Source: a virus
Reading direction: 5' to 3' (one strand)
DNA: 64,000 bases
Virus record (IMG/VR): IMGVR_UViG_3300006735_000002
Location: 1-64,000 of that record
Positions within the stretch are counted from its first letter, which is position 1, and each line of letters starts with the position of its first letter. The notes below the pieces were generated by a model that saw nothing but the letters and a program-made list of their open reading frames with translations, was not told the origin of the DNA and did not search any database. The translations under genes and the position numbers were made by a program. Positions 19,811-64,000 of the stretch are shown piece by piece.

Positions 19811-19866
19811 TCGAAGTAGCCTCGGTCTCTCATGTTACACTCACCCGCAACCACGGGTGAGTGTCC

Positions 19867-25800: not shown

Positions 25801-28800
25801 TTGGTTTATCGAAATGTGATCGAGGGTGGAGGAGATTCTTACATCGCCTTCGACCCAACCCAGGTCAAGTCCGTCTACAACCGCGGCACCTTCGATGACA
25901 GCGCACGGCTGCTCTTTCAGGGTGAAGACGTCCAGCGTGTGGCTCGTCGTCGCGGCGGTGGGCGCCGCAGGGTGGACCCTGATGCCTCCATCGGGTCGAA
26001 GCAGCCTGTAGGCGTCAAGACCCGTGCGGCGAGGATCAACGAGAAGTTTGGGCCTCTGGCGGGCACCGCTGAGCGTGCGGTACTCGCATACAATGGAGCC
26101 CTTAGCAGGGCTCGCCTCAACCCCAAGAGGACGCAGGCCCTGCTCGAGAAAGCCCAGAACGCGATCAAGCGGGCTTACGTCACGTTCTCGATGGGCAACG
26201 CTCAGAAGGTACCTGACCTGCTGCTCGACATTGCAGATGCCATCAAGACTGACGACGCGGTTCTCGAGGCTTTGGCGAGTAAGCCGAACTTCCATGGAGT
26301 CATGAGCAACCTGGTCAGGAAGGCGCGCAACCCTGAGCAGTTGACTCAGGCGGACGTTCGCTCCATCGAGACAACTCTCGATATGATAGGTCTCGCAGAC
26401 CGATTTGACGCTCGTCGTATCGGCTCGTACACCGGAGAGGTCGCCAAGGCTCCCAAACGTGAGGCCGAAGCGCTGGCAGCGGTGGCGGATGCGGCTGCCC
26501 CGGCGGCGCAGCCGGTTGCTGCCGCTAAGCGGCTCAGGATGCCTGAGGCTCCTGAGCGTTCTCCCAAGGTCGGTGAGGTGCTCGGCGACATCGAGAAGTT
26601 GTCGGACATCAAGGGTCTGAAGTCTCAGGTGCTTGCGGCTGCTCTGGACCTCAAGGGCGACTACGGTCGTGACGCTGACGTCGTGCTCAAGGCGATCGAC
26701 ATGATCGGTCCTGAGCGACTCAACGACATCGCGCTGACGGTTGCTCGCGAGCCTGGGCCAGAAGGCCGGCGTGCGATGTTCGACTTCACCGAAAACACTA
26801 TTCGGATCTACGAAGACGCCCTCGAGACCGGCGTTTTTTCCGACGAGGTAGTCAAGGAACTCTGGCGGTCGCTGACTCGGTATCTCCCCGAAGACGAGAT
26901 CAAGGCCCTCTCTGACGAGTACCTCGACCAGCGCGCGATGTTTATGCGCGAGGAGTCCGAGCTCTTCGACGCGCAGGGCGCGTTGAAGGAGGGCGCTAAC
27001 ATCGACGACGTCGACCGACATATCCTCGACTTTGAGGATTGGGTGGTCCAGAGTATGAAGGACCTCGCGCTGCAGAAGTCGCGAGAGGCTGTGTTCCAGA
27101 CCACCGGGGCGGGGAGGCTGTCGAAGCGACCTCTAAACGTCAGGGGCAACAGGGTCCTGAAGGTGTTGATGGACACGGTCAAGGGTCTCGTGCAGGAGTT
27201 TTTCAGCCAGGCGAAGAACCTGACGCAGATCATCGAGGACTTCTACTCGTCGGGCAAGTACACTGAGCGGCTTCGCGAGAAGGGCATTCAGCTGGTCGTT
27301 ACGGACGAGGATCTTCTGCGTCGTCAGAAGGAGTGGACGAAGTTTATTGATGAGTCGGCGAAGGTCGAGCCGAAGAGGGCTTTGGGTCAAGTTAAGACGC
27401 CCGGAGGAAAACAGAAGGGCGACGATGCGGCAGCAGCGGCTGCGCGAACAGAGGCCATTGACAAAGCGACTGCGCGCGCTGGTAAGTCTGACGCTGCAAT
27501 CTCGGTCGGGGAACTCAAGAAGCTCGCAGATCGATTTAGCCGCACCGCGTCTACAACCGACAACCCCAAGCGGGTTGCGATGGTGCGCAGGAAGTTCCGC
27601 GAAGGCATCGACCCTGTGATCGCGGCAGTTGGCAACGACGAAGCGAAGGCCCTGCTGACTCCGCTGCTCGAGGCTGCCAAGGCAGACGATGCAGTGGCAG
27701 ATGCTCTGGCGAAGAGCCCTGAGGCCATCAACGCCATTGAAAACTTGGCGGTTCAGGCAGACGTCGCTGAAGACCTCGCACCCGTGGTAGAGGCGTTCCG
27801 CAGAGACATTACTGACGCTGGGCTCGGAGATCGACTGCCTGAGGTCGAGGTCCCTGCAGCAGTTGTGTCTGACGAAGTGGCGACTCCAGCAGCCCCCAAG
27901 GCCACGCCTGTCGCAGAGGCTGAGCCCAAGGTCGCGGCGGTGCCGCAGCCTGATGAAGGTGTCGACAATCTGACTGGCGCAGTCGCTGACAGAGCGACGT
28001 CGCGCGTGATGGAGATTCTCAAGTTCGAGGCAGGCAAGGATGACACGACCGTCAAGCGAGCGGTCAAGTTCGTCTTCCCGCGCGAGGAAGTCGCTCAGCG
28101 CATGCTCAACGAGGCGATCAAGGACGACGTGACTCGCGTTCTTCGGTCGGGAATCGTGGACCGTCTCACTGAGCTGGGCGTGACGGCGAAGGTCGACGGC
28201 GAAGAAGCCTCTGCAAAGCAGTTGGTGCGCTTGTTCAATGACCTTCAGTCGAAGGAGGACGCCGCGCGGTACGGCAAGGTAGACGGCAGTGCTGAAGCGG
28301 GTGACGAGCTTCTCGTAAATGCGCGGGCAGAGCTTGAGACTGACATCGCCGAACTCAATAAGCGGATTGAAGCTGCCGAAGAAGAGGCCGAAATCGGCAA
28401 ACTTCGCCGTCAGCTTGGTGAGGCTGAGAGTGCTCTTGAGGAAATGGAGCGTGGCCGTGAGACTGTGGAAATCCGTCGCAGCGCTTCGAAGTTTCTCGAT
28501 GACGTCTACGACCCTAAGCGCGGCCTGGAGAACGCACAGCGAGGCCTTGCTCTGGTCGAGCGGCTTTCTGCCGGAGTGTCTGCTCCCGGCGGAGCTTCTT
28601 TGAGAAGCATGGTCGGAGAACTGTCGCCCGAGGAGCAGAACGTCGCTCGCTACCTGCTTGAGCGGCAGATGAAGAACCACAAGCGCGGCACGGCGCTGAC
28701 CATGGAGGTCAGGGACGACGGTGAGCTGTACTTCCAGTTGGTGGGGGACCGTCCGCTGTTCGACGAAGACGATGTCATCGTCAAGTTGTTCCGTGACGAG

Positions 28801-31800
28801 GCCAAGGCTCGGGCGAAGCAAACCGAAGCGGCGGAGGCCGCCAAGAAACTTGCGAACGAAGCAAACAAGAAAAAGAGGAACGCCCAAAATCGTCTCGCTC
28901 GGCTCGAGGCGGCAGCGACGAAGATCGAAGAAGATGCAGCGGTGGCGACAGAAGACGCCATGAAGATCGCCGCAGAGCGTTTTGCGGAGAACCTGCCGGA
29001 TAGATTCGAGCAGGTACAGGCCGCTCAGACCGCCGCGATGGATAGTCTCCTTCCGCTTGACACGCCCAAGAGGTTGACGCCTACGCTCGAGATTCAGCCC
29101 GGTCTTGAGACGGCTACAGCGTCTCTTGTGGACCTGGAGCGGCTGCTGTCGGAAGGCTTCGATCGCAACAAGGACCGTTCAGCGGTGCTGTCGCTCATTA
29201 TCGACACCGCAGACACTCTCTCCCCTTATCTTCGTTTCGACTTTCCAGAGTCTATCGGAGTTATCGACGAGACGAACAAGGGGCGCCTGAAGGTCGGAAC
29301 GACCAAGCAGCTGCTCACCAACATGGTCGATACGATCAAGGCAGCGCTGGCCCCCGAGGACCTCGAGGTGGTTGAAGGTGCGGTGGACCTCATTCGCGCC
29401 GACAACCTCCAGGAGGCAGTTGACCTCAAGCGGGCTGAGCCTGATGCGGCTCCGGCTCCTGCGCCCCTGCCGACTACGCCGGCAGAGCACACGCCGCTCC
29501 CGCTTGATGCCATCAATCAGAGCACGCTGCGCACGAAAAGCGGCGAGGGCGTTCAGTTGCCGCAGCCCACGACTCTCGATGAAGTCGAGGCGATTGACAA
29601 CATCGAAGAAGCCTTCCTCGACATGAAGACTTCTGAGTTGACCGAAGTCGCGACGACCCGCGGCATCGACATCGAGGACTTCCGTCGCGAAGACGGTAAG
29701 GTCGACTGGGGCGGGTTGGTTAAGGTCCTGGCGAAGCAGGACTCTGACGCTATTCGGTCGCAGCGTTTGGTGGCTGAAACCACGGAAGTCGAGGGTGCTA
29801 CGGCAACCGACGCTGTTCGGCGCGCTGAGATCGAAGACTTGGCGGAGGAAGCCGCGCCCCAGATTCCTGTTGAAGAGGCTGTCGCGCAGCTTGACGAGGC
29901 CGCCGAAACACTGATGACAACCGGCGCCGAGGTGGCTCGAGAGCGACAGGTTCGCCTCGCAAAGCTCATCCGTGAGGCACGTGACCTCAAGGGCATGACG
30001 CGGCAGGAGATTTCCGACCGCATCTTCGCAGACCTGGACTTCACAGAGCGTCGGCGTATCGCGGAAAGCGGTGGTATCGACGACCTGGTCAACGACATCA
30101 CCGGCACGGTCGATGTCCGCATCAAGGAAATCTCAAAGGAAATCTCCAAGCTGCGCACGCAGGTCAGAGTCGCCAATCGGAAGGCCGACGCGTCTTCGCG
30201 GGAAGTCACTCAGCGTAACTACCGTGACGCCGCCGACCGCTATCAGCGCCAGGCTGACACGATGCAGGAGTTCCTCGACGACATCATCCGTAAGGATCGA
30301 GCCGCCTTGGACGAAGAGATGCGTGTGGCTGTCGACGAGGAGGCTGCTCGGCGCGCGGCGGAAGCTATCCCAGAACCTGAAGCTGAAGTCGCAAAGACAC
30401 TTGAGGCCGAAGTCGCGCCGGAAGCTGTGCGCGCGGCGGAGGCTGCGCCTACCGTAAAGGTAGAGCCCAAGCCCGCAAAGGTCGCCGTGGCCGAAGAGGT
30501 GGAAGAAGTCGAAGAAGCCGTTGAAGACAGCGCTGTCAATGTCGAAGAGATCCGCAAGAGGGTCGAGCGCTGGGACAAGGAGAACCGTCGCGACAAGCCT
30601 CCCGCACCTCCGGCGAGCGCGCCTCCGCGCGACCGTGGGACGGACGCTCCTGACGCTCGGGCGATGGTCTACTTCATGGACGACTCGTCGGCGATCATCT
30701 ACGCGCTCAAGAACGCTGACGCTTCATCTGGCCTGCACGAGATGTCTCATGTTCTCCGTCGCCACTTGCGGCCGGAGGACCTGCGGGTGTCTCTCGACTG
30801 GGTCAACAGCCAGCTGCGGCGCACTGAGATCGACGGCCAGACTGTCGAGGCTCTGCCTGAAATCAGCCTGGACCGCTACGGCAACTTCACAGGTCGAGCC
30901 GACTCGGTCGTGACTGCGGAGGAGCTCTTCGCTGAGGCTCATGAGCAGTACCTCCGCGAGGGCCGCGCGCCGACGAAGGCGATGGACGCTGTCTTCAAGG
31001 TGATGAAGGAGCTTCTGCGAAGCATCGTCACCACGCTCGGCATTGTTCCTCACCGCCTGGAAATCAGTCGTGAAATGAACGACTTGTTCGATTCCATCTA
31101 CGGGGCTCGCAGGGATCTCGACATCACTGAGCTGACGCAGGTCACTCGGTACTACGACACTCAGCGTGCGCTTGCAGGCGGAAGAACTGGCCTCCGTCGT
31201 GCCGGTCGCCTTGAGTCTGACCTCGTGATCGAGGATGAGCTGACCGATCGCTTCAGGCAGCGCATTCTCAGCCTGCAGGAATACTCCACGCGCTTTGCCC
31301 CGCTGGAAGGTAGGCAGTACAGGTTGGAGCAGTCCGCTCTCGGAGTGAAGACGCCTGGACGCGTCGGAGCTCTTGGTCTCGGCACGGGGGGCGCAAAGGA
31401 CTATGGCCCAGTCAGCCGTCGCTTCTTGCCGATGGAGACGGGGGCGCGCATCCGTGGAGGCAAGGCTACCGGTAGCGACCGCGGTATTGCGTCTGTGCTC
31501 AAAGCCGCAGATTATGCTGCGGTGATGGCGGCAAACGCCGCGGTGTTCCTGCCTTACACTCTGCTGTACGGCACGGACGCAATGATGCTGCTTCGGTCGG
31601 CACCGGCCGCGTCCCGCCCTCTGCTGTACGGTCAGGGTCGAGAGCTCGAAGAGTTCACCTACGGCTTGACCGTGTTGATCAACGACGTCAAGAACCGCAC
31701 AGGGGACGCTCAGAAGCGCGGCCTCAACGATATCATCAGCTATTTGCGCGGACAGCCCGTCTACCTGCTGACAGGGGCCGAGGCAGGAACCCTGACTCGC

Positions 31801-34800
31801 GGAACTTCGGTTGATTCTGGCGACGCGTTCTTCGCGATGCTCGACCAGATGCTGTCTCGACTTGACCCGGCTGCTCGGACGGCGCTCGCGGATGAAGCTT
31901 CTCAAGCACTGTCAGGAGACATGAGGGCCACGAAGTCGCTTAGCGGATTCTGGAAGGGGTACTCCGTCAAGCGCGTGGACGGCATGTCTATCGGTAACAG
32001 TGAGGGGCTGCTGCTGAACGATGCGTATCTTGACGAGATGACGGTAGTGACAGCCAAGGGCGACACTATCAAGCTCGATGGTCCGACGCAGGACATGCTC
32101 GGCGCAATGTTCGAGGCTCTTGAGGGGAGCCCCGTTGGCAACAACGTCCCGGTGTCTGACGCAACGAAGACGGCGGCAGCTCTGTTGATGTTCCACTCGG
32201 GCAAGTCGACGTTCACGAACAACGGCGTCGAGGTCACTATTGAGATGGCTCAGAGGCTGAGTGGAGAAGACACTGCGCTGGGCCTGCTTATGCGCGGCGC
32301 GTCCTTTGATGTTGACGGAACCACTGTCAATGTGCCGGGTCTCATGCAGGTGACCGGAGATAATGGCAAGGCTCTGCGTGGTTTGCTGGCTCTCGGCACC
32401 TACTCTGCCAGCTCTCGGATTACTGCGGACGCTGCGGAGATTGGTCTGGGGGTTACGCCTGGCCAGTTCCGGTCATACGCACGGTTTATGAGTGGTCAGC
32501 AGGCGCGGATGACGCCATCGCAGATTGACGAGGCGAAGGCCGTCATCGCCAAGTTCGGCTTCTCCATGGACTTTACGAAGATCGGCTCTCGCCTGGGCTC
32601 TTACTACATTCCGCGCCCGGCGCTTAGCAAGATCAAGGGTGCGCTCAACGATGCCGACCGGCTGCTCAGTCTCCGGTCTTCCGGCGACGGAGCGACGGAC
32701 GTAGTGTCTCAGATGGTGGCTTGGTTGTTCCAGGTCACCAACACCGAAGCCATTTTCGGGTCGCTCCTGCCGAAGTCAACCTTCCGCACTCCGTCGTTTA
32801 TCGACGCCGTTGCCGGCGCCATGTCTGTCGGCGGCGGTACTCCTGCAATGACGACAGCTGCTCGCATGAGTGCGGGTACCGCCCTCGGCTACGGCCTGGG
32901 TATTCCTGGCTTCCCTGGGTCTGAGTTGATCAGCGCTGAGCGCATGGCGGACATCGCGGATGCTCTCCCCAACGCCGTGCGAAAGAGGTTGCGGAGGAGT
33001 CTCGGCGGCTCTGAGAGTTACCGCCTATACCCTGATCCGAAGAACCCCGGTAAGTTCATCTCTTCCGATGAAGTTGTCCAGGGCATGAAGTCGTCGCTTC
33101 GCGAAGCTGCGGTGAGGCAAGGCGACGCTTTCGCCAAATCTCTGACCGAGGGGATGTCCGCGTCGAAGCACCGCGTGGAAGTTCTGCCCATCATAAACAA
33201 CGACCCGCAGGCCATCTTCGTTCTTAACGGTTCGCCCTACCGTGCCTCGGATTTGCGCCGCATCTTCGTCCGAAACGGTCTTTACAACAACGCGTTCAAG
33301 GGCGTAACGATGTTCCTGCGGAACGAAGGCGCCATCGGTTTCGGCGTTGACGGTTTCGGCAAGGAAGACCGGCTCAAGAGTGCGCTTAGCCCCAGCAACA
33401 GCCGTGCCGTAGACTCAATGGTGAGTGTAATCGAAGGCGCGGGTGCCTCCCGGAGCAGCGAGCTGGTGCGTGACGCGTATCACATGGGTCGGAGCGGGGC
33501 GTCGCGAGTGTTCGAGCACGGTCTCGAGTCGATGGATGCGTTCGCTGACCTTGAGCGCACGGGCATGGCGGTGTCCTTCATTGAGCTGGGCGTTCCGCCA
33601 GAGCTCGCTGCGAAGATGGTCGTCAAGGCGGTCTACGACTACCGAGGGTCGCTGACGCGGGCAGACCGGACGCTGTTCAAGCGCGCGTTCATGCCGTTCT
33701 TCGGCTTCCAGAAGAACGCGATGGCGCACTTCACCGACCTGCTTGCTTCTCCTCGTGGCCGGTTCTTCGCGCGGGTCATGGGGCGCATGCCGCGGATGAC
33801 CATGGAAGCACTCTCGACGCTGTACTTCGAGACCGTCGTTGGGCCTTACGGCGTCAACACCACGGCCATGAACGAGGCTGAGATCAATCTCTACTACGAG
33901 GCTCGTAGTTTCTTTGAGCTGGGTCTCGGTGACGATGTGTCGGCGGAAGACCTGTTGGTCTACCGAGAGATGCTGCCAGAAGACGCGAAGGACATCAGCG
34001 ACGAAGAGCTCATGGACTACAGTTTCGACGGCTGGACTGTCCGTGATGGCTACAACGGATACGACAACGTCCCTGAAGACATGCGCGCCACAATGCGGTA
34101 CCTGCTGCTTGCGCGCGGCCAGCTTCGGGCGAATGGTCGGTACGTCAAGATGTCAGAAGCGGTGATTGACAGAGACCTCCGGCAGCAGTTTGTTCAGATG
34201 GGCGCAACGATGGCGGTTGTCGATGAGCCGAGCTTGTCGGCGCTGCCTGCCTGGGCGGCAAACCGCTACCCCACTGTCTTGATTTCTCCTGCCGTCATGA
34301 CCAACTCGATTCAGGCGAGTCGGCGCGGGTCAAAGGGTATGGGGGATTCTGTCGGCATCATGCTCCCCGACAACTTCATCAACGCGGGGTTTGAGCAGAC
34401 GGCCGCGACGTTGGCGACGGTGTACGCAGGAGCTTTCGCCGCTAGCGAAGCGGCGGATTTCGTTTTCTCTGACGGTACGCGCACCGAGGTTGCTGCGGCT
34501 ATGCGCATGTTGGCCAACTCCGCGACACCGATGATCGACATCCGCGGAGGCGGGTCTCCTGGGATGCAGCAGCTCATGCTGCTTTCCGAAGTCGGTATCA
34601 ACGACGGAGACTTGTACGTCGAACTCGACCCGTTCATCGCTCGCTTGATGGCGGGTACGCTGATTCCCATCAACTACACCGAGGGTGACGATGATCTCCG
34701 GTTCCTCGAAAACTTGGCGCCGGAGACGCGAGCGATGCTCAACAAGCTCACGCGCGTGAGCTCGCTCGGTGGACTCCGCGAAGTCGAGTATCCGTCGTTC

Positions 34801-35160
34801 GCGACTGAGGCTCGGACAGCGGTTGTCAGCGAAGAAGGCGGCAAGCGAGTCATCAAGTACGTCGACGAGGACTACGAAGAGCTGCAGGAGGCGTACAACT
34901 CTCGCCGCAAGAAGCCGTTTTTGATGGGTCGAAGCGCGCTCCTGTTTAAGGTCGGCCTACTTGGCCGCGTAAACGCGGCGTTCCTTCGCCTGAGAACGTC
35001 GCCTCAGGAAGACGCACTGGCGGCTGAGGCGAACTTGAAGAACGAGCTTACTCGTTTGGTTTTCAGCGTTAGTCGTTCCGCGGGACTGCGTGTCATGGCA
35101 CCAAACGAGCGCATGACCGCGAGAATGGCTGCGCCCGATCTTCTGGTCGATGACGAATGA
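19867..35160 (+). CDS. Giant (~5,100 aa) polyvalent / internal virion protein with muramidase-like, ADP-ribosyltransferase-like (ART-PolyVal) and zincin domains
   Basis: Uninterrupted ORF. AISKTES...GAWGEYQVLG (muramidase-like, ~21100-21740); FKRWLGDSKVVD..G.PLVVYHGT...GYHFG...PVYL...GHDG..Y.N...SYIAFDPTQVKS (ART-PolyVal-like, ~25320-25900); HEMSH...EELFAE (30736 onward); C-terminal YDY...LT..DR..FKR..MPF. Confidence 0.85.
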   Translation: MSYFDNLRKRAGFAIEPFADPEPEQLQPPEDVGAGVAVDAPDTLGDPFPGAPSGIAKRQKYELPKVEFDDFDPFEALGNVQFQAEYAAEVATTTGQEAQQALRVAGERELSDLGDGVLGTTLGSLAQFLPATAAKARISAGEGDVDIPGITSYLFNPQDTPEELFQTLSASEIDESSAAAQEIAKQGRRAKKVRNARDIRADIMARKIEKEFVNHYGEAPGAEKYAAFIDNIIAQTSTPEKRRTERDAEFVLLDAAERKMPNKGGGESQSQYQSVQRRAVNLVLDTSKAGIGTAFADSALVQALPNFIDTVPKIERDKIRSDLSGAPSTGSTLERAEFLAQLFNLPAPLEVDGLEPIPATLVGSQAIRETIASNDFIFREKNTRSTPKTEDLYRPLKSDAVADEDEQSRVIYLAGQAGIPAPMAYAISKTESTGIPDGFAYNLHIGSSLDKRTPESRRRTPQEEVALRRSLREAGFDVVMEPVERDGELVWPAENFYRGDAKKVFQAAYGVNGKAAVQGGAWGEYQVLGRDGGLIDAMLQIDGVEDEDQAAEQAVLQFRENPSLIGDQLFVNWFRREDPQAVTARQAANDGDVETLGLMYYGDSPDPKQVTERRKWTTRTKNNLEDYVGGMFTPPESAEDQRPEALVSVAGATPLAEREDPEDLIEEAATAVGEMIGQSDFREGKTEVEQALGLNAIQASSGSGLLPSFTAFAQMSEYPEEGTPTREKAVAPYRELIKAGSPLLADMKDSFRAPVGEKFSKFARAVYRDMLESARLSGEEPDEREIEIEARKKAFKLMISAQTADATLPPFQTSWDYITGQTDELSLIDAMKPLVEVVGAVDGGFVYRQEGTGLAFMNAMDAPPVMGQSFNIGVVKYYLLPALGAEIEKAQSGEQGLMDAAINMGMSSFKASQLGTSVIPGASAVTGGVLEEVKRAGVRGVAERQNFVELGIEQGGNLTAWAMQQALDTERGREAVESLIESGVIPIPAGLEKGNVDLATIEIARAAGSVLGTVGGFIVAVAHPDALMGIGDTKAAITAGYRQFKAIPDFERTTEALIGLRGEIYKRGLGRVSRTAEIAMGLEQVVARDQGGSSTKAVADAYSVLLDKVEQLRESDNLDADLRARGRASVYVFIDGEAERRMGEIAAGDSIQSAAAKDALDEGFSEVVAAKLKSVAEEAIASGNPLKKEEGKRLLAIVNAGIGDNVTLTPKLSDIKEAKTQDGRIVANVAFSTADRLEALILGLKLDDPSKDSTALRQTIFEQRMGRVRPTLGNTNSKDIAGFAQNPTLANGLDVFAPVSEKALDASLEGVRLSDAKKEEFRATRAALEDFHKRLKAAVADGSILDPLVSADFKNEFRQKKFKQSSYRLFNNSEESDRGRRYAQVLTGVFNEAAVVTNKSEGHQFLRRGLDAVLTYSTERGKTIQSFSRSLVDEDAVRAGGFTDVDDFLDPQGSRHYVNRAISAMLVSTKEGILSFALGVPGLRRTVDPAMLKVQQRSMMSTAALHQMRADGQDPFTVAASVQGEVLRRLRQEKALAVQAGDSVRSAEVSDQIDEVLTPQWRTGLIDWMKASADAISRGEDPQSVVKYNLPIGITLGTASETALPVLPATRKFARGSFFRAFGFSPPEQVRAGQLSPGTRTVRPRISPEEERAVEYVLDRMLRYMARADMMQSPGAANAKVENFIKQNILNVRSVDSLNNFAAKATEMRGALSSTRDAISQRRHGMSYDELAATGDTRARVEVQSDAMQSVLPLMSEREAFLIFHRTYEELEDIIAAARRGETGDDFVATRLFQDASAASADADEVAEARRLYEEQGVESPYFKRWLGDSKVVDDEGQPLVVYHGTAGDFDEFGRKRPQELGYHFGSSEAASTRLGLLVEEEVAALSDTERARYFEAVRSTSEGVNVVPVYLSMTPLRVSDSVSWTGVSVIDDMARRYPQFADIFGEARTRLSAIPETDLAARADVVKDAVRKTGHDGLVYRNVIEGGGDSYIAFDPTQVKSVYNRGTFDDSARLLFQGEDVQRVARRRGGGRRRVDPDASIGSKQPVGVKTRAARINEKFGPLAGTAERAVLAYNGALSRARLNPKRTQALLEKAQNAIKRAYVTFSMGNAQKVPDLLLDIADAIKTDDAVLEALASKPNFHGVMSNLVRKARNPEQLTQADVRSIETTLDMIGLADRFDARRIGSYTGEVAKAPKREAEALAAVADAAAPAAQPVAAAKRLRMPEAPERSPKVGEVLGDIEKLSDIKGLKSQVLAAALDLKGDYGRDADVVLKAIDMIGPERLNDIALTVAREPGPEGRRAMFDFTENTIRIYEDALETGVFSDEVVKELWRSLTRYLPEDEIKALSDEYLDQRAMFMREESELFDAQGALKEGANIDDVDRHILDFEDWVVQSMKDLALQKSREAVFQTTGAGRLSKRPLNVRGNRVLKVLMDTVKGLVQEFFSQAKNLTQIIEDFYSSGKYTERLREKGIQLVVTDEDLLRRQKEWTKFIDESAKVEPKRALGQVKTPGGKQKGDDAAAAAARTEAIDKATARAGKSDAAISVGELKKLADRFSRTASTTDNPKRVAMVRRKFREGIDPVIAAVGNDEAKALLTPLLEAAKADDAVADALAKSPEAINAIENLAVQADVAEDLAPVVEAFRRDITDAGLGDRLPEVEVPAAVVSDEVATPAAPKATPVAEAEPKVAAVPQPDEGVDNLTGAVADRATSRVMEILKFEAGKDDTTVKRAVKFVFPREEVAQRMLNEAIKDDVTRVLRSGIVDRLTELGVTAKVDGEEASAKQLVRLFNDLQSKEDAARYGKVDGSAEAGDELLVNARAELETDIAELNKRIEAAEEEAEIGKLRRQLGEAESALEEMERGRETVEIRRSASKFLDDVYDPKRGLENAQRGLALVERLSAGVSAPGGASLRSMVGELSPEEQNVARYLLERQMKNHKRGTALTMEVRDDGELYFQLVGDRPLFDEDDVIVKLFRDEAKARAKQTEAAEAAKKLANEANKKKRNAQNRLARLEAAATKIEEDAAVATEDAMKIAAERFAENLPDRFEQVQAAQTAAMDSLLPLDTPKRLTPTLEIQPGLETATASLVDLERLLSEGFDRNKDRSAVLSLIIDTADTLSPYLRFDFPESIGVIDETNKGRLKVGTTKQLLTNMVDTIKAALAPEDLEVVEGAVDLIRADNLQEAVDLKRAEPDAAPAPAPLPTTPAEHTPLPLDAINQSTLRTKSGEGVQLPQPTTLDEVEAIDNIEEAFLDMKTSELTEVATTRGIDIEDFRREDGKVDWGGLVKVLAKQDSDAIRSQRLVAETTEVEGATATDAVRRAEIEDLAEEAAPQIPVEEAVAQLDEAAETLMTTGAEVARERQVRLAKLIREARDLKGMTRQEISDRIFADLDFTERRRIAESGGIDDLVNDITGTVDVRIKEISKEISKLRTQVRVANRKADASSREVTQRNYRDAADRYQRQADTMQEFLDDIIRKDRAALDEEMRVAVDEEAARRAAEAIPEPEAEVAKTLEAEVAPEAVRAAEAAPTVKVEPKPAKVAVAEEVEEVEEAVEDSAVNVEEIRKRVERWDKENRRDKPPAPPASAPPRDRGTDAPDARAMVYFMDDSSAIIYALKNADASSGLHEMSHVLRRHLRPEDLRVSLDWVNSQLRRTEIDGQTVEALPEISLDRYGNFTGRADSVVTAEELFAEAHEQYLREGRAPTKAMDAVFKVMKELLRSIVTTLGIVPHRLEISREMNDLFDSIYGARRDLDITELTQVTRYYDTQRALAGGRTGLRRAGRLESDLVIEDELTDRFRQRILSLQEYSTRFAPLEGRQYRLEQSALGVKTPGRVGALGLGTGGAKDYGPVSRRFLPMETGARIRGGKATGSDRGIASVLKAADYAAVMAANAAVFLPYTLLYGTDAMMLLRSAPAASRPLLYGQGRELEEFTYGLTVLINDVKNRTGDAQKRGLNDIISYLRGQPVYLLTGAEAGTLTRGTSVDSGDAFFAMLDQMLSRLDPAARTALADEASQALSGDMRATKSLSGFWKGYSVKRVDGMSIGNSEGLLLNDAYLDEMTVVTAKGDTIKLDGPTQDMLGAMFEALEGSPVGNNVPVSDATKTAAALLMFHSGKSTFTNNGVEVTIEMAQRLSGEDTALGLLMRGASFDVDGTTVNVPGLMQVTGDNGKALRGLLALGTYSASSRITADAAEIGLGVTPGQFRSYARFMSGQQARMTPSQIDEAKAVIAKFGFSMDFTKIGSRLGSYYIPRPALSKIKGALNDADRLLSLRSSGDGATDVVSQMVAWLFQVTNTEAIFGSLLPKSTFRTPSFIDAVAGAMSVGGGTPAMTTAARMSAGTALGYGLGIPGFPGSELISAERMADIADALPNAVRKRLRRSLGGSESYRLYPDPKNPGKFISSDEVVQGMKSSLREAAVRQGDAFAKSLTEGMSASKHRVEVLPIINNDPQAIFVLNGSPYRASDLRRIFVRNGLYNNAFKGVTMFLRNEGAIGFGVDGFGKEDRLKSALSPSNSRAVDSMVSVIEGAGASRSSELVRDAYHMGRSGASRVFEHGLESMDAFADLERTGMAVSFIELGVPPELAAKMVVKAVYDYRGSLTRADRTLFKRAFMPFFGFQKNAMAHFTDLLASPRGRFFARVMGRMPRMTMEALSTLYFETVVGPYGVNTTAMNEAEINLYYEARSFFELGLGDDVSAEDLLVYREMLPEDAKDISDEELMDYSFDGWTVRDGYNGYDNVPEDMRATMRYLLLARGQLRANGRYVKMSEAVIDRDLRQQFVQMGATMAVVDEPSLSALPAWAANRYPTVLISPAVMTNSIQASRRGSKGMGDSVGIMLPDNFINAGFEQTAATLATVYAGAFAASEAADFVFSDGTRTEVAAAMRMLANSATPMIDIRGGGSPGMQQLMLLSEVGINDGDLYVELDPFIARLMAGTLIPINYTEGDDDLRFLENLAPETRAMLNKLTRVSSLGGLREVEYPSFATEARTAVVSEEGGKRVIKYVDEDYEELQEAYNSRRKKPFLMGRSALLFKVGLLGRVNAAFLRLRTSPQEDALAAEANLKNELTRLVFSVSRSAGLRVMAPNERMTARMAAPDLLVDDE

Positions 35161-41443: not shown

Positions 41444-44269
41444 TCACACTTCTGCCCAGGTTTGGCCGACATCAGCCTCGCAGGTGAATGGGACAGACCA
41501 TCCTGGGACATCGATGGTCATGCACTCGGTCATCTTCTTCTGCGCCCAGTCCGCCAGATGCTCCGGCACTTCGACCACGAGTGAGTCATGGACTTGCGCG
41601 GTCAAGCCTGTGCCTGGTCCCCACTGCTGGAACGGGAATGCTTCAAGCACTCTCTGCTCGGCGACAGCCATGATGGCGGCTTCGCACGCGAGGATGGGGA
41701 AGTTGACGACCTCGTTCTTCTTGCCGTCCTGCAGGCCGCCGGAGCGACGACCGAACAACGGGTCTTCCATGTACCCTTGCTGGTCATACAGTTTGAGCAT
41801 TCGGTTCCAGGCTGCCTGCCAGTCAGGCTCAGACTCATGCCAGACGCGGTCAAAGAACCGCACTTGGTTGAGGTCAAAGTGCAGGTAGGGGAGCTTTGTT
41901 TCGAGCTCGCCGTCTTTGGTGAAGCCAGTCATCTCGGTCGAGCGGATCACACTGTGCTTGGTCTCTGCCGCCGCCCAGTAGATCGAAGCGTAGCGATACG
42001 TCTTGATGAGTTCGCGCAGCTGGCCAGCCTTCCCTTTCTTCGAAGGCTTGTGCGTTGCCTTAAGACTGAACCCCTTTGTCCAACCTGAAGCCTGTTCAAA
42101 ATCCTTTCCGAACAAGTCGTGAGCGAGCCAGCAGTGCGGGTCAAGGTTCTCTGCGAAGCACTCAAGCAGGCGCTGGATGTTCCAGTAGTTGGCGGTGACT
42201 ACGAGGTGCGCAGCGCTCAGGTCGCATCCCACCAGCACGTTGCCGGGAGACGCACAGAAGACCGTACGCACACCACCGAGGTCCTTGCGGCTCGACTGGT
42301 TCTGCATGTTTGGTCGGCTCGAGGACAGTCGCCCTGGCGCTGTCGTGTGACTGTTCCACGTGGAACGGACTCGACCGTCAGGGTGCAGTGACCCACCGGC
42401 AGAGAGCGGTCGCAGGTTGTACAGCTGCGTTCCCAAGACCTTGGTCTTCACGCGACGGTACTGCCGAAGGGTCAGCAGGAAATCTCGCTGAGACTCAGTG
42501 ATGTGGGGGCTGGCCATGTGTGCTCGGAGCACCGCGTCACCTGTGCCGGGCAGACCTGTCTCTGTGTAGAACTCCTTGGCGTCCATGCCGTAAGGGATGC
42601 CGAGGTCCCACTGGCCGTAGAGCAGGTCTCCGATCTGTCCGAAGGACCCAGGGTTGAACTCCGCGCCCTTCTTGCGGCGGATGCCGATGCGGTCAGCCAG
42701 GTCCTGCAGCTTCCCGTACAGCTGCTTCGCTACACCCTCGAACTTCGTGGTGAGCATCTCGACCTTGACCTGATTGACGTAGATGCCGTTCTGGTGCATC
42801 TGAACGCACATGTCCTGCCGGGCATGGTCAAGATGACGGAGCGTCCAGGGGGTCGAACTCGGCCAGGACGTAGGCTTTGCCCACTCCGGCAGCGGCCGAC
42901 CCGCACCGTTCGAGTCCGCAGACCGACGCAGTGGCTCTGCGATGCGGGCGTTGACCACGGTGTCGTACTGGCAGTAGAGCAGCCGGCTCTTGACCGTCTT
43001 GCGTGAGGTCGCTGCTCCGTCTCCGCTCTCACTGGTCTCCCACTTGTGTACGTCAGTCAGCCGACGACCAGTAGGCTTGAGACCCTTGGGCAGGTCAGGG
43101 TGGGTGAAGCGAGCATCGAACAGTGTGTCGATGATGGGTGTCGGCTTCACGCCGTAGCAGTGCTCGACTACTTGGCGGTCGAAGTAGCCGACGTTGTGCC
43201 CGACCTTGGTCTTGCTCTCGTCGAGGAAGAACTCGAGGAGGATGTCGTGAATCTCCTGCGCCTCATACGGCAGCAGGTGCCGTACCTTCTCCCCCTTGAC
43301 TGCCTGATGCATGAGCTCCATGTTGGTGTGGATACCCACCGTACGGGCAACCTGATGCGGCTTCTCCCAGGGCATCGTGGAGTTGCCGTGGATGTCGATG
43401 TCTGGCGTAGCGATGGCGAGGCAGTCGACCTGGATGTCGCGCACGTTGATGCCATCGGTCTCAAGGTCGTAGACCCAGAAAGGTGACGGCACTGCCAGCC
43501 ACTCGCGCAGCTGGTCTGGCGTTGGCTGCGTCAAGAACTCTGGCTCACGCCAGTACAGCGCATCGTTGAACCAGCGCCACGCCTTGCCCAAGGTCGCGTA
43601 GAACTGTGGCCTCACGCTGGGGCGGTGCTTTACGAAGCCTGGGTCGTAGGTCGAGATGACCTTGACCATCCAGTCCGACGTGGACTGAGTCCAGTCAAAG
43701 GCTTGCCACGTCAATCGGCTGGCCTTGACCTCGCGCATGTCACCTTCGAGGTCGGACATGCTGGACGAGGTACCGAGCACGCGCTGGGCTGCCGTGCTGC
43801 CCATCGGGATGACGTAGCCGTAGTCTGCCAACCTGCTCTGCAGGTATGGGGCGCAGCAGTCTGCGGGGTGAGGCAGCTCCTCCTCTGCTTGACGCTTTGC
43901 TTCCGCCGCAGACATTCCTGCGGTTTGCAGCTTCTTCTGCGCGGCTTTGCGCTTGCGGCGAAGCGTCGCCTCCATCTTCTTCCACCCATCTCTTGGGGCG
44001 CATGACACCACGAAGAACAGGTCAATCATGGTGCGGTGTAGACCGTTCGCCTTGAGCGCACGGTCCCACTCCCCACCGTCCTGGCCGCTGAGCGGTCGTC
44101 CGTGGGTGACGTCGCCCAGGCGTGGTGCCTCAAGCACTGCCGCGACCGTGGTGGACTCGTGAACCTCGGGAGGTACCGGAGACCACTCACCGTCTGACAG
44201 ACACCCCTTTGGGCCGAGAGGGCATCGACCACACTGCGCGCCACGAGAGCGTGGATCGAAGCTACTCAT
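41444..44269 (-). CDS. polA: Family A DNA polymerase with N-terminal UDG family 4-like domain and 3'-5' exonuclease
   Basis: UDG-like CGRCPL...EAP...GRPLSG; Exo I YDLETDG, Exo II GHNVGYFD, Exo III YCQYD; GRLSSSRPNMQN, motif A DLSAAHL, motif B RELIKTYRYASIY, motif C VHDS. Confidence 0.92.
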   Translation of the reverse strand: MSSFDPRSRGAQCGRCPLGPKGCLSDGEWSPVPPEVHESTTVAAVLEAPRLGDVTHGRPLSGQDGGEWDRALKANGLHRTMIDLFFVVSCAPRDGWKKMEATLRRKRKAAQKKLQTAGMSAAEAKRQAEEELPHPADCCAPYLQSRLADYGYVIPMGSTAAQRVLGTSSSMSDLEGDMREVKASRLTWQAFDWTQSTSDWMVKVISTYDPGFVKHRPSVRPQFYATLGKAWRWFNDALYWREPEFLTQPTPDQLREWLAVPSPFWVYDLETDGINVRDIQVDCLAIATPDIDIHGNSTMPWEKPHQVARTVGIHTNMELMHQAVKGEKVRHLLPYEAQEIHDILLEFFLDESKTKVGHNVGYFDRQVVEHCYGVKPTPIIDTLFDARFTHPDLPKGLKPTGRRLTDVHKWETSESGDGAATSRKTVKSRLLYCQYDTVVNARIAEPLRRSADSNGAGRPLPEWAKPTSWPSSTPWTLRHLDHARQDMCVQMHQNGIYVNQVKVEMLTTKFEGVAKQLYGKLQDLADRIGIRRKKGAEFNPGSFGQIGDLLYGQWDLGIPYGMDAKEFYTETGLPGTGDAVLRAHMASPHITESQRDFLLTLRQYRRVKTKVLGTQLYNLRPLSAGGSLHPDGRVRSTWNSHTTAPGRLSSSRPNMQNQSSRKDLGGVRTVFCASPGNVLVGCDLSAAHLVVTANYWNIQRLLECFAENLDPHCWLAHDLFGKDFEQASGWTKGFSLKATHKPSKKGKAGQLRELIKTYRYASIYWAAAETKHSVIRSTEMTGFTKDGELETKLPYLHFDLNQVRFFDRVWHESEPDWQAAWNRMLKLYDQQGYMEDPLFGRRSGGLQDGKKNEVVNFPILACEAAIMAVAEQRVLEAFPFQQWGPGTGLTAQVHDSLVVEVPEHLADWAQKKMTECMTIDVPGWSVPFTCEADVGQTWAEV

Positions 44270-62169: not shown

Positions 62170-62613
62170 TCAGCCGTGCTTGCTGAGGGCGTGGTCGCTC
62201 CAGAAGGCAGCAGCCTCGACAGCTTCCGAGGGCTTCATGCCCGAGTCCCACCACTCTCGGGGAGCGACAGTGGACCCGATGCTCCCGTAGGCGGTGAACA
62301 CCTTGGGGTCATCGCCGGCGATGCCGATGACCACCATGTGGTCTGCCGGTCGGCACGGGCGGTTGATGAGGCGGCTCGGTCCGGGGCGGTTGCCCCGCTT
62401 CACGTACTCCACCTCTTCCTCGGGGACGGACTCGTCACCACAGGACGGACCGTACAGAGCCGACTGGAGCGTGCCGGCCAGCTCCTCGAGCGGGACGGCA
62501 TCGACGAAGAATCCCTCCCGCACGCTCATCAGGATGTCGATGAGCTTGTGGTGTCTCTCGTCCAGCCCGTGGTCAGCGTGAAAGATTGGCGTGCCCTTGG
62601 GGGTAGCGGTCAT
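62170..62613 (-). CDS. Conserved phage hypothetical protein
   Basis: SALYGP..GD..V...R..R.GPSRL...FTAYG...APREWWD...FW..HAL pattern; GGAG RBS. Confidence 0.7.
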   Translation of the reverse strand: MTATPKGTPIFHADHGLDERHHKLIDILMSVREGFFVDAVPLEELAGTLQSALYGPSCGDESVPEEEVEYVKRGNRPGPSRLINRPCRPADHMVVIGIAGDDPKVFTAYGSIGSTVAPREWWDSGMKPSEAVEAAAFWSDHALSKHG

Positions 62614-62763
62614 GGTTCTCTCCGATGCAGGCTGAGTGAACGCACGACGAGCAGACCTGCGGACATGCAGGAGCCTGCTGCGCTCGCCGTGCGGGATGGT
62701 TGCTCAAGCGCATGAGGCTGCTCGACCCTGTCGGGGAGCGGCGTCACACCTTGGCGCGATTGC

Positions 62764-62897
62764 TGGGAGCGGAGGGCATCGAACCCTCTACCGTCAAGGT
62801 CTCGTGTCGAGGTGATCAGCCTCTCCACGGCAGCGTCCTCAGGTGATCAGCCCGTGAACATCTGCGCGACCAACGGCCCTTACCAACCGGCGCTCCC
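62764..62897 (-). ncRNA. tRNA-like RNA (134 nt) with forked anticodon arm bearing two CUGAUCA loops
   Basis: Acceptor stem GGGAGCG/CGCTCCC plus A discriminator; T-arm GAGGG-TTCGATG-CCCTC; GG-containing D region; two internal hairpins with identical 7-nt loops; no CCA encoded; intergenic. Confidence 0.75.
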
Positions 62898-63005
62898 TCA
62901 GGATGAACCTGAGGCCCAATCAAGGCTCTCCTCTTGCGAGGTTGTAGGCGTGGAATCAGACGCCTCGTTACTTGTATACCGCTGCCTTGACTCAGCGGTG
63001 AGTGG

Positions 63006-63230
63006 TCACGGGATGAGGTAGGAAACCTCAACCTCGTACAACCCGCTCCACTCTCCGAACGGGTCGATCACTGCATCGCAGTGCTCGACCTCCGCCAGGA
63101 ACACCTGGCCCTCATGGGTCACCGCGACGCGGAGACCCACTTCGATTGCTTTTCCGACGATGAAGATTGCGTCTTCATCGTCGGAGAAGTTCGCCTTACT
63201 CAAGGCGAACTGTCGCAGGGCGGGGGTCAT
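63006..63230 (-). CDS. Hypothetical protein
   Basis: GGAG RBS; start set at ATG 63230. Confidence 0.55.
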   Translation of the reverse strand: MTPALRQFALSKANFSDDEDAIFIVGKAIEVGLRVAVTHEGQVFLAEVEHCDAVIDPFGEWSGLYEVEVSYLIP

Positions 63231-63429
63231 GTCTCTCTCCAATGCCGGAAGCAAGGAACCCACACACACCTCCGGCGGGGTGCATGTGGGCATGCCGTCA
63301 GGGTCGTGGCCTCTCGGCCACGGTGCCCCCGCACGAGGGGAAGCAGGGGGGCGATGCTCAACCCTGCCTCAACCCACGCCAGGGGCGCGATGCGATGCGG
63401 GCAACCTCACGGGTGCCCGCGGTGTGCCG

Positions 63430-63564
63430 CTACCAGAAGTAGCGACACACCTTGTCGAGCGCCACGCGGGCAGCCACAAGGGCCGCCCGGTACGCCAGGT
63501 TGATGCCCGGCCGCTCCTCCTCTCGTTCGAGGAGTTCGACCATGTGCCGGCCGATCACTGTCAT
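63430..63564 (-). CDS. Small protein (44 aa)
   Basis: MTVIGRHMVELLEREEERPGINLAYRAALVAARVALDKVCRYFW; codon usage like its neighbours, weak RBS. Confidence 0.4.
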   Translation of the reverse strand: MTVIGRHMVELLEREEERPGINLAYRAALVAARVALDKVCRYFW

Positions 63565-64000
63565 CTCTACGCTTTCCAAGTTCACCGGAACTCCTCGGCA
63601 CACCGACATGTCATGCCGGTGTCAGGTATGCCGGTAAGTGTGTGACACTTCCGGCGGGTTGAGCACTCAAGCGTAGCGACACGTGGTGTGCCTCGGCCGC
63701 TTGAATGCGAAAGAAAAACAGAGGGTCATACGGGATAACCCTCGTTGAACCTGTCATATGCAAGTCGGACAGGTTATGTCCGAATCACTGCTATGCCAGG
63801 TAGGAAGCCACCTCTCGCAGAATCCTCCCACGTTGGGGCGGATTCGAGGGTGGCTGCGCTTAAGAGAAACCTAAAGGTAGGGGTAACTCCTACCCGCCCC
63901 CCTGATGGGGGGTAGATCCTCGCGCGCTTAGGAATCCTTTTACAAGTCACACATTTGATCATTCAGAAATCTATCAGGTAGAACCTGAGTTAATCCGTAT

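Follow-up and report, generated by a model that had tools for sequence, protein, structure and literature searches.

Oversized tRNA-shaped phage RNAs with palindromic loops beside a conserved core hairpin

Introduction

Small stable phage RNAs that resemble transfer RNAs (tRNAs) have been known since T4 and have never been explained. Passages in two papers describe RNAC and RNAD of T4 (species 1 and 2), encoded where the tRNA cluster of this phage ends, and state that their roles are unknown (PMC3014915; PMC9697503). Likewise, passages in a study of Lak megaphages report oversized tRNAs with highly conserved inserts, called "enigmatic introns," the meaning of which is given as unknown (Devoto et al., 2019, PMC6784885). 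ROOL and GOLLD, which are RNAs of phages or prophages located near phage tRNA islands, form homo-oligomeric cages that are partly held together by intermolecular kissing loops, as seen by cryo-electron microscopy; the sections of that study that deal with these RNAs describe the intermolecular pairs as conserved and the function as unknown (PMC12286853). Here, we analyze a tRNA-shaped RNA gene on the minus strand of an uncultured marine phage, the IMG/VR record of which (IMGVR_UViG_3300006735_000002) spans 81,570 base pairs (bp) with direct terminal repeats and a G+C content of ~61%. The window referred to throughout is the first 64 kb of this record.

An earlier note on this stretch had singled out the RNA as a tRNA scaffold that carries two hairpins with identical palindromic loops. 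We find that it is a tRNA-scaffolded, non-decoding RNA and that it is one of a widespread and as yet uncatalogued group of oversized, tRNA-shaped RNAs of phages that are located beside a core of the form AACGAGGCGU...ACGCCUAC. Across this group, the palindromy of the loops is conserved while the loop sequence changes. The earlier note overlooked that the locus is composite, with the tRNA-shaped RNA as one part and the core with its junction fold as the other. Our literature searches found no description of this RNA family, which may be among the 10,006 candidate phage RNAs that, according to passages of the paper, are listed in the supplements of Fremin et al. (2023; PMC10690425).

Results

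A non-decoding RNA on a tRNA-shaped scaffold

The RNA is numbered from window position 62897 (RNA position 1) to 62764 (position 134) on the minus strand, and its features are collected in Table 1. Read from 62897, the RNA consists of GGGAGCG, CC-GGUU-GGUAAG-GGCC-G, UUGGUC, GCG, hairpin 1, a C, hairpin 2 and an A, followed by GACC, UUGACGGUA, GAGGG-UUCGAUG-CCCUC, CGCUCCC and a final A. The sequence and the folds place the acceptor stem, A73, the T arm, the junction and both hairpins with their loops exactly where the earlier note had located them. The mean probability of being unpaired in the ensemble fold is 0.99 for each of the two CUGAUCA loops, and the nearest-neighbor self-duplex of this loop amounts to -5 kcal/mol. 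Between the top stems of hairpins 1 and 2, one pair has changed on both sides (C-G versus G-C) and another on one side only (G.U versus A-U). In the minimum-free-energy fold (-63.3 kcal/mol), the junction helix is extended by pairing of GCCGUU at RNA positions 21-26 with GACGGU at 103-108, and the D arm is absent.

As a whole, a segment of 141 nucleotides (nt) folds with a modest z-score of -2.41, and 3 of 200 shuffles fold equally well. The scaffold was examined by scanning both strands of the 81,570-bp genome for a TTCRANN loop on a T stem of five Watson-Crick pairs, combined with an acceptor stem of seven Watson-Crick pairs within 300 nt. The tRNA-shaped RNA was the sole match in the whole phage genome, as compared to a mean of 0.01 matches in 100 dinucleotide-preserving block shuffles, only one of which had any match. 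These results show that the tRNA-shaped scaffold is real and unique in the phage genome.

The RNA has the 7-bp acceptor stem and the 5-bp T stem with a UUCRANN-type T-loop that are expected of a tRNA. It does not have a tRNA anticodon arm, with a 5-bp stem, a 7-nt loop, U33 and an anticodon; instead, the helix opens into a three-way junction. ARAGORN with default settings identified no tRNA or transfer-messenger RNA (tmRNA) genes in the window, and its dedicated tmRNA search (-m) was likewise negative. No Rfam 15 family reached its gathering score across the window, and nothing relevant was found at E-values up to 10 across 62500-63200, a region in which the YrlA/Y RNA-like model (RF02553) also had no match at this threshold. 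There was no match to the ROOL and GOLLD models, which describe RNAs of more than 500 nt, as compared to 134 nt here. The tRNA model RF00005, with a cut-off of 29 bits, had no match in the phage's own genome and was positive in all 14 control genomes. The ARAGORN and Infernal/Rfam searches thus gave the outcome that the earlier note had anticipated, with no full tRNA, tmRNA or Y RNA match, and together with the whole-genome RF00005 search they bear out its statement that this is neither a normal tRNA nor a tmRNA. A tmRNA has a G3.U70 pair, a tag reading frame and pseudoknots. This class was rejected, also with regard to structure, given that pair 3-70 is G3-C70 rather than G3.U70 and that there is neither a tag reading frame nor pseudoknots.

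Relatives share a conserved core hairpin

Near-identical copies of the RNA were found in one other IMG/VR contig and in one contig from the Joint Genome Institute (JGI), and these are uninformative for covariation. A strict two-loop pattern recovered only identical copies from viral_contigs and metagenome_contigs; the other 22 of the 24 stretches from metagenome_contigs are tandem repeats within coding or repeat DNA. Short tandem repeats of the 12-mer GGCTGATCACCT were also seen in the metagenome contigs L408, L410, L411, L415, L425 and L427, where they have the look of repetitive coding DNA and are unrelated to the RNA. A search of viral_contigs with two flanking genes recovered a near-identical phage and a relative with 53% identity, which has no RNA at the syntenic site.

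A looser pattern, consisting of two CTGATCA followed by GGTTCRA, gave 66 matches, 62 of which were not copies of the window phage. Filtering for stems beside both loops and for a T stem left three loci, L022, L056 and L060, which are unrelated to one another in sequence and in G+C content. Comparison of their flanks surfaced a core hairpin, with the consensus AACG(A/G)GGCG-loop-CGCC(U/C)AC across loci. It is located on the same strand and within ~100 nt of the RNA in all four of the first CUGAUCA-loop RNAs (the window RNA, L022, L056 and L060), and just downstream of the RNA in the latter three. L022 (8415-8592, minus strand) is a complete tRNA (Rfam 41.5 bits) with an odd anticodon loop, CUAACUA, and a 105-nt insert in the variable region that contains a pair of CUGAUCA hairpins; the core hairpin comes next downstream. 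The position of this insert shows that a tRNA can accept display hairpins at more than one site. L056 is located within a phage array of 20 tRNAs, and L060 adjoins a tRNA-Trp. On the plus strand of L056 (860-1375), a tRNA-Leu-like 5' fragment is followed by an open reading frame (ORF) with an HNH-type motif, and an intact tRNA-Leu is found at 1375-1457, an arrangement that looks like the insertion of a homing endonuclease with duplication of its target.

The core hairpin is near-invariant, with a length of 24-26 nt and the form AACGAGGCGU-loop-ACGCCUA(C/U); its stem never covaries, and its loop ranges from 3 to 11 nt. The exact core pattern gave at least 120 matches in viral_contigs and at least 120 in genome_contigs, amounting to at least 224 distinct instances, the flanks of which are otherwise unconserved. 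The genome matches listed come from Actinomycetota, Proteobacteria, Firmicutes, Bacteroidota and candidate-phyla-radiation lineages, among others. Each of the three core-carrying phage genomes in which it was counted has a single copy, and there is none in the 71.5-kb genome of the 53%-identical relative (G001). A search of positions 45,001-94,800 of phage P1 for the core was likewise negative. The core is located at 604-627 in L188, about 601-623 in L189, and 601-624 in both L190 and L191. Among the 36 loci compared, no neighboring protein is common to all, and no protein cluster is found in more than two. Rfam has no match for the core or junction RNA. A role of the core as a mimic or complement of ribosomal RNA was considered and rejected, with no convincing match in the rrnH operon of E. 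coli.

Cultured phages with the core include Arthrobacter phage Kumotta, Erwinia phage ChrisDB, Pseudomonas phage D6 and E. coli phage CUS-3. It is located inside a tRNA array in ChrisDB, immediately after a gene annotated as "tRNA-OTHER" in D6, and in the interval from Q to the holin gene in CUS-3. The core-bearing stretch of CUS-3, an unannotated leader of 341 nt, is covered to at least 80% in 117 of 5,426 complete E. coli genomes, and there is some match in 732. The "tRNA-OTHER" of D6 (L190, 486-566) has an anticodon-arm loop of 13 nt that contains GUAC and is located 32 nt upstream of the core; a non-decoding tRNA next to the core is thus also available in a cultured phage.

In the window, the core hairpin is part of a multi-branch junction RNA, here called module C (Table 1), the architecture of which is common to 19 other loci. 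These were compared by constrained folds of each sequence, because MAFFT misaligned the 3' helices. The outer helix P1 and the tetraloop hairpin P4 covary, while the core stem is invariant, and many of the 19 loci also contain a GUAG-hairpin-GAAC insert. In other phages, the core is found downstream of ordinary tRNAs or of oversized tRNA-shaped RNAs. No tRNA isotype dominates among the scaffolds, and the window RNA resembles none. A search with the composite RNA of a relative gave mostly T-arm matches. The window RNA fits the traits of the family: a length of at least 95 nt, a retained acceptor stem and T arm, extra hairpins, palindromic loops, and a core within ~50 nt.

Palindromic loops and covarying stems

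The frequency of palindromic loops was determined for tRNA-shaped RNAs of at least 95 nt that end no more than 45 nt upstream of a core. These were chosen by the core alone, and the counts leave out the window RNA and the pattern-selected L022, L056 and L060. A palindromic loop was scored if a hairpin of at least 4 bp had a loop of no more than 9 nt that contains a 6-nt Watson-Crick palindrome. Such loops were identified in 10 of 19 relatives, as compared to 2.6 on average and no more than 8 in shuffled sequences, none of which reached 10 (0 of 300). With genome loci added, the numbers were 11 of 22 relatives and 3.22±1.61 for the shuffles, with 0 of 200 reaching 11. UGAUCA was seen seven times and GAUAUC twice (in the same RNA), while UGUACA, AUGCAU, UCUAGA, ACUAGU and UAAUUA were seen once each. 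YUGAUCA in a 7-nt loop is present in 7 of the 22 relatives.

The stems of these hairpins were examined in a gap-free alignment of 15 YUGAUCA hairpins from 11 phages, covering the four closing pairs. Of these positions, 98.3% are paired, as compared to 57.4±5.0% in shuffles and 32-62% in controls in which the alignment was slid. The covariation score is 1.274 versus 0.361 for the shuffles, with 0 of 500 shuffles reaching the observed score. All four closing pairs have changed on both sides, and G.U pairs are used. Seven rows, gathered without any filter on pairing, are all paired. The claim that selection acts on the RNA structure of both hairpins, which had been made from the two hairpins of the window, is thereby upheld in a larger set.

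Conserved palindromy with a changing sequence is the signature that would be expected of a self-pairing loop rather than of a sequence-specific protein site. Varied palindromes, as seen in the relatives, are predicted by self-pairing and not by the mimicry of one anticodon loop. Pairing between molecules is favored because some members have only one palindromic loop, or two that are not the same (L178, L260).

A natural variant

We searched the contigs of four metagenome runs for variants and identified one variant contig (run X13, depth 5.7). It has six substitutions across 62600-63020 (window 62794-62798, 62840 and 62686), five of which are inside the RNA. The loops, the acceptor stem and the T arm are all intact, and C100U, U101C, G103A and A104U are located in the junction/variable region. 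C100U preserves pairing as G27.U100. With the extended helix, one pair gains from G103A and another is lost through A104U; with the cloverleaf, all four changes at 100-104 fall in the free variable region. This one contig leans slightly toward the cloverleaf over the extended helix.

Genomic setting

The data sets listed with sequences of the phage are 20 marine or seawater DNA sets from 14 studies, and no RNA set is among them. The phage encodes a peptidoglycan-binding protein, which indicates a bacterial host. The tRNA-shaped RNA gene is located inside a 390-nt gap that separates the minus-strand ORFs at 63006-63293 and 62170-62613. The flanking proteins have no Pfam family and a single weak PHROG match, of no known function. 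Neither the RNA region nor the surrounding 14 kb had a blastn match in the phage collection.

The tRNA-shaped RNA is surrounded by small minus-strand ORFs in the part of the genome that separates the DNA polymerase gene (41444-44269) from the right end; judging by this position alone, it may be expressed early. A promoter scan of 62300-64000 gave no sigma-70-like sites. The terminator-like matches near the RNA are all on the opposite strand, and one of them is the core hairpin read backwards. Upstream of the locus, a stretch of ~850 nt (window 63294-64000, continuing to about 64145) contains short ORFs only, together with two terminator-like minus-strand hairpins at 63743..63721 and 63895..63875. 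Elsewhere in the window, a single ORF of 5,099 residues on the plus strand (19861-35160) occupies 15.3 kb of the 81.6-kb genome.

Table 1. Features of the composite locus, in window coordinates.
Feature	Coordinates	Strand	Description
Whole tRNA-shaped RNA	62764..62897	-	134 nt including the discriminator A at 62764; from sequence, folds and genome scan
Acceptor stem, 5' strand GGGAGCG	62891..62897	-	RNA 1-7; forms seven Watson-Crick pairs with the 3' strand at 62765-62771; unpaired with a mean probability of 0.01
D region	62872..62890	-	RNA 8-26; GGUU/GGCC D arm with loop GGUAAG, or single strand plus 5' strand of the extended helix
Junction helix, 5' strand GGUC	62868..62871	-	RNA 27-30; partner GACC at 62798-62801 (RNA 97-100)
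Hairpin 1	62831..62864	-	RNA 34-67; CUGAUCA loop at 62844-62850
Hairpin 2	62803..62829	-	RNA 69-95; CUGAUCA loop at 62813-62819; 2x2 GA/GA internal loop
T arm GAGGG-UUCGAUG-CCCUC	62772..62788	-	RNA 110-126; 5-bp stem; identical in the X13 variant
Acceptor stem, 3' strand CGCUCCC	62765..62771	-	RNA 127-133; followed by A (62764), then GCAA
Spacer hairpin UCAGG-UUCAU-CCUGA	62898..62912	-	Adjoins the 5' end of the tRNA-shaped RNA; from the fold of 62898-63005
Module C, multi-branch RNA	62918..62992	-	P1 AGUCAAGGC/GCCUUGAUU, core hairpin P3, UAC-AA, P4 CCUC-GCAA-GAGG, AGAG; fold z = -2.97
Core hairpin AACGAGGCGU-CUGAUUCC-ACGCCUAC	62944..62969	-	46 nt upstream of the RNA 5' end; stem GGCGU/ACGCC

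Discussion

The reading that we prefer, with a probability of about 0.45 and thus somewhat below even odds, is that of a stable, non-decoding, tRNA-scaffolded RNA, the palindromic loops of which would pair with the like loops of other copies. The tRNA scaffold would recruit the host enzymes that act on tRNA ends, with ribonuclease P (RNase P) cutting at the 5' end and RNase Z or exonucleases, followed by the CCA-adding enzyme, acting at the 3' end. Such processing would excise the RNA from a longer minus-strand transcript and make it stable. The exposed palindromic loops would then kiss identical loops of other copies, and the presence of two loops on each molecule would allow dimers or larger chains and rings. 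The palindromic tips probably let copies stick together. Of the two roles that the earlier note had proposed, a decoy and multimerization by loop-loop kissing, it is the latter that is favored, given that what the relatives conserve is the palindromic loop.

Several observations weigh against this reading. With regard to the scaffold, we infer the transcription, processing and stability of the RNA from its shape alone, and CCA is not encoded after the discriminator A134, where the next bases are GCAA. The tRNA core is degenerate, with CC at positions 8-9 and no U8; among the elbow positions (U8, A14 and G18-G19), a GG is present in GGUAAG, and the D stem relies on two G.U pairs. The D region described in the earlier note, GGUU-GGUAAG-GGCC, can indeed pair, but enforcing this D stem gives -60.3 kcal/mol, which is 3 kcal/mol worse than the minimum-free-energy fold with its extended junction helix. 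The order of elements is also different, with the core preceding the tRNA shape in the window and following it in the 22 relatives. With regard to the loops, 11 of the 22 relatives have no 6-nt palindromic loop by the same criteria, and 4-nt palindromes are only in weak excess (13 of 19 relatives versus a mean of 8.7, a level reached by 15 of 300 shuffles). UGAUCA itself recurs in 7 of 22, which a specific ligand, or a protein, could explain equally well. Of the 15 rows in the covariation set, the eight from the window RNA, L022, L056 and L060 had been preselected for flanking pairs. The second, different palindromes of L178 and L260 are located on weak stems with G.U pairs, and in the X13 variant the substitution G58A turns C44-G58 into C.A at the base of the top stem of hairpin 1, thereby weakening this stem. 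Finally, two identical loops could kiss within one molecule and give a compact monomer rather than an oligomer.

As to what an assembly might do, we would guess foremost at a scaffold, or at a particle for sequestration, that is made with or beside the neighboring conserved RNA and acts on a universal host component. In its most specific form, this would make the RNA the minimal building block of an RNA-only assembly, cut and stabilized by tRNA enzymes and linked head-to-head through its loops into rings, chains or a lattice, as a small counterpart of ROOL and GOLLD; together with the junction RNA, which is found in phages of nearly all bacterial phyla, it would capture or scaffold such a universal component, namely tRNA, the ribosome or a tRNA enzyme, during infection. 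We regard this complete scenario as speculative and, taken as a whole, rather unlikely.

The alternative that survives best, albeit an unlikely one, assigns to the tRNA shape the role of a processing handle only. The shape would mark a cut, by RNase P in the window and by RNase Z in the relatives, that frees the junction RNA, in the manner of mascRNA for MALAT1 or of the t-elements in plant mitochondria, and the hairpins would be passengers. This explanation fits the constant proximity of the tRNA shape and the core, which are separated by 13-35 nt in the relatives and 46 nt in the window, and the start of P1 of the junction RNA within 1-2 nt after the discriminator base in the relatives. It also fits the ordinary tRNAs that occupy the same position beside other cores, and the far better conservation of the core than of the tRNA-shaped part. 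However, a plain tRNA or a minimal mimic of the acceptor stem and T arm would suffice for cutting, and the inserts keep covarying stems and conserved palindromic loops, which argues for selection on the insert itself.

It is less probable that the RNA is a decoy or sponge for a tRNA-directed host defense, such as an anticodon nuclease or a tRNA-modifying toxin, with loops that imitate an anticodon loop. Phage tRNAs that counter tRNA-cleaving defenses are known, the scaffold would draw tRNA-binding proteins, and the 7-nt loops have a Y at position 32 and a U at position 33, as in anticodon loops. Yet position 37 is a C and not a purine, and the scaffolds resemble no single isotype. The earlier note had envisaged a bivalent decoy for anticodon nucleases with the loop of tRNA-Ile as the model, and this idea fares poorly in the relatives, which swap UGAUCA for GAUAUC, UGUACA, AUGCAU or UCUAGA and thus share palindromy rather than likeness to one anticodon. 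Nor is there a defense or counter-defense gene common to the 36 loci, in which the protein clusters span no more than two.

A feature of the DNA, such as an operator, palindromes for methylation or restriction, or a cruciform, or else a chance fold, is very improbable. TGATCA, GATATC, TCTAGA and the like are typical of sites for DNA enzymes, and inverted repeats exist in DNA too. The axis of each hairpin, at the center of the 7-nt loop, is nevertheless displaced by half a base from that of the TGATCA palindrome, so that the arms are not symmetric about the latter; this offset, together with the G.U pairs with which the stems covary, favors a feature of RNA over one of double-stranded DNA. Moreover, the 12-mer GGCTGATCACCT is found nowhere else in the window, where 6 matches with up to two mismatches were counted versus 6.55 expected, and the genome scan places the scaffold beyond the chance level of the shuffles.

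A canonical bulge-helix-bulge motif has a 3-nt bulge, a 4-bp helix and a 3-nt bulge. The idea of an intron-containing tRNA, from which a 67-nt insert with both hairpins would be spliced out to leave a working tRNA, can draw on a relaxed ARAGORN run with introns allowed (62764-62897 as "tRNA-Ala(cgc)" with a 67-nt intron), on a junction that resembles this motif (a 4-bp helix flanked by GCG and UU on opposite strands) and on the oversized tRNAs with "enigmatic introns" described in passages of PMC6784885, but we reject it because one bulge is 2 nt rather than 3, the loop of the spliced product, GGUCGCU, would have no U33, the peptidoglycan-binding protein suggests a bacterial host, and L022 bears a like insert in its variable region while retaining its own anticodon arm; also, default ARAGORN gives nothing with introns on or off, and Rfam has no group I intron match.

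With self-pairing loops as the preferred reading, the family provides a mutable handle on the problem of the small tRNA-like phage RNAs, in the form of palindromic display loops on a tRNA scaffold and a conserved partner RNA. Should self-assembly be driven by the loops, quaternary structure, which has lately been seen only in giant ornate RNAs, would extend to very small RNAs and be widespread in phages. The presence of the core in Kumotta, ChrisDB, D6 and CUS-3, and of the CUS-3 leader stretch in at least 117 complete E. coli genomes, makes part of the system testable at the bench now. The natural display of hairpins on a tRNA scaffold also mirrors the engineered "tRNA scaffold" that is used for the expression of recombinant RNA.

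Comparison with known systems

The closest published items are RNAC and RNAD of T4 and the "enigmatic intron" tRNAs of Lak phages. RNAC and RNAD are like the window RNA in being phage-encoded, non-coding, 119-139 nt long and located beside tRNA genes, and RNAC ends in a T arm, CCGGG-UUCGAAU-CCCGG. They differ from it by having no sequence likeness to it and, in the stretch examined, neither a AACGAGGCG core nor palindromic 7-nt loops; conversely, the RF00005 search indicates that the window phage, unlike T4, has no tRNA cluster. The Lak tRNAs, as far as the published passages describe them, are likewise tRNA-like phage genes that are too long for standard callers. Compared by description, they are read as decoding tRNAs after intron removal, whereas the window RNA has no canonical anticodon loop. 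ROOL and GOLLD are about 580 to more than 800 nt long, ornate and not tRNA-shaped, and for the window RNA we infer oligomerization.

Outside these phage RNAs, the tRNA-like domain of tmRNA shares the topology of the minimum-free-energy fold, in which the acceptor stem and T arm are present, the D region is reduced and the anticodon arm is replaced by a long helix. The mascRNA and the t-elements of plant mitochondria are similar in having a non-decoding tRNA-like fold beside an RNA whose end the fold could define, but they are mimics of ~60 nt with no display hairpins; the Rfam mascRNA-menRNA model had a weak match in another phage (L189), with 24.4 bits versus a cut-off of 42.5. The dimerization initiation site (DIS) of human immunodeficiency virus type 1 (HIV-1) has a loop with a 6-nt palindrome and a flanking unpaired base, and its variants keep the palindromy and change the sequence. 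The HIV-1 DIS is one site on the genomic RNA of a virus, while the RNA studied here has two sites and presents them on a tRNA scaffold encoded by a DNA phage.

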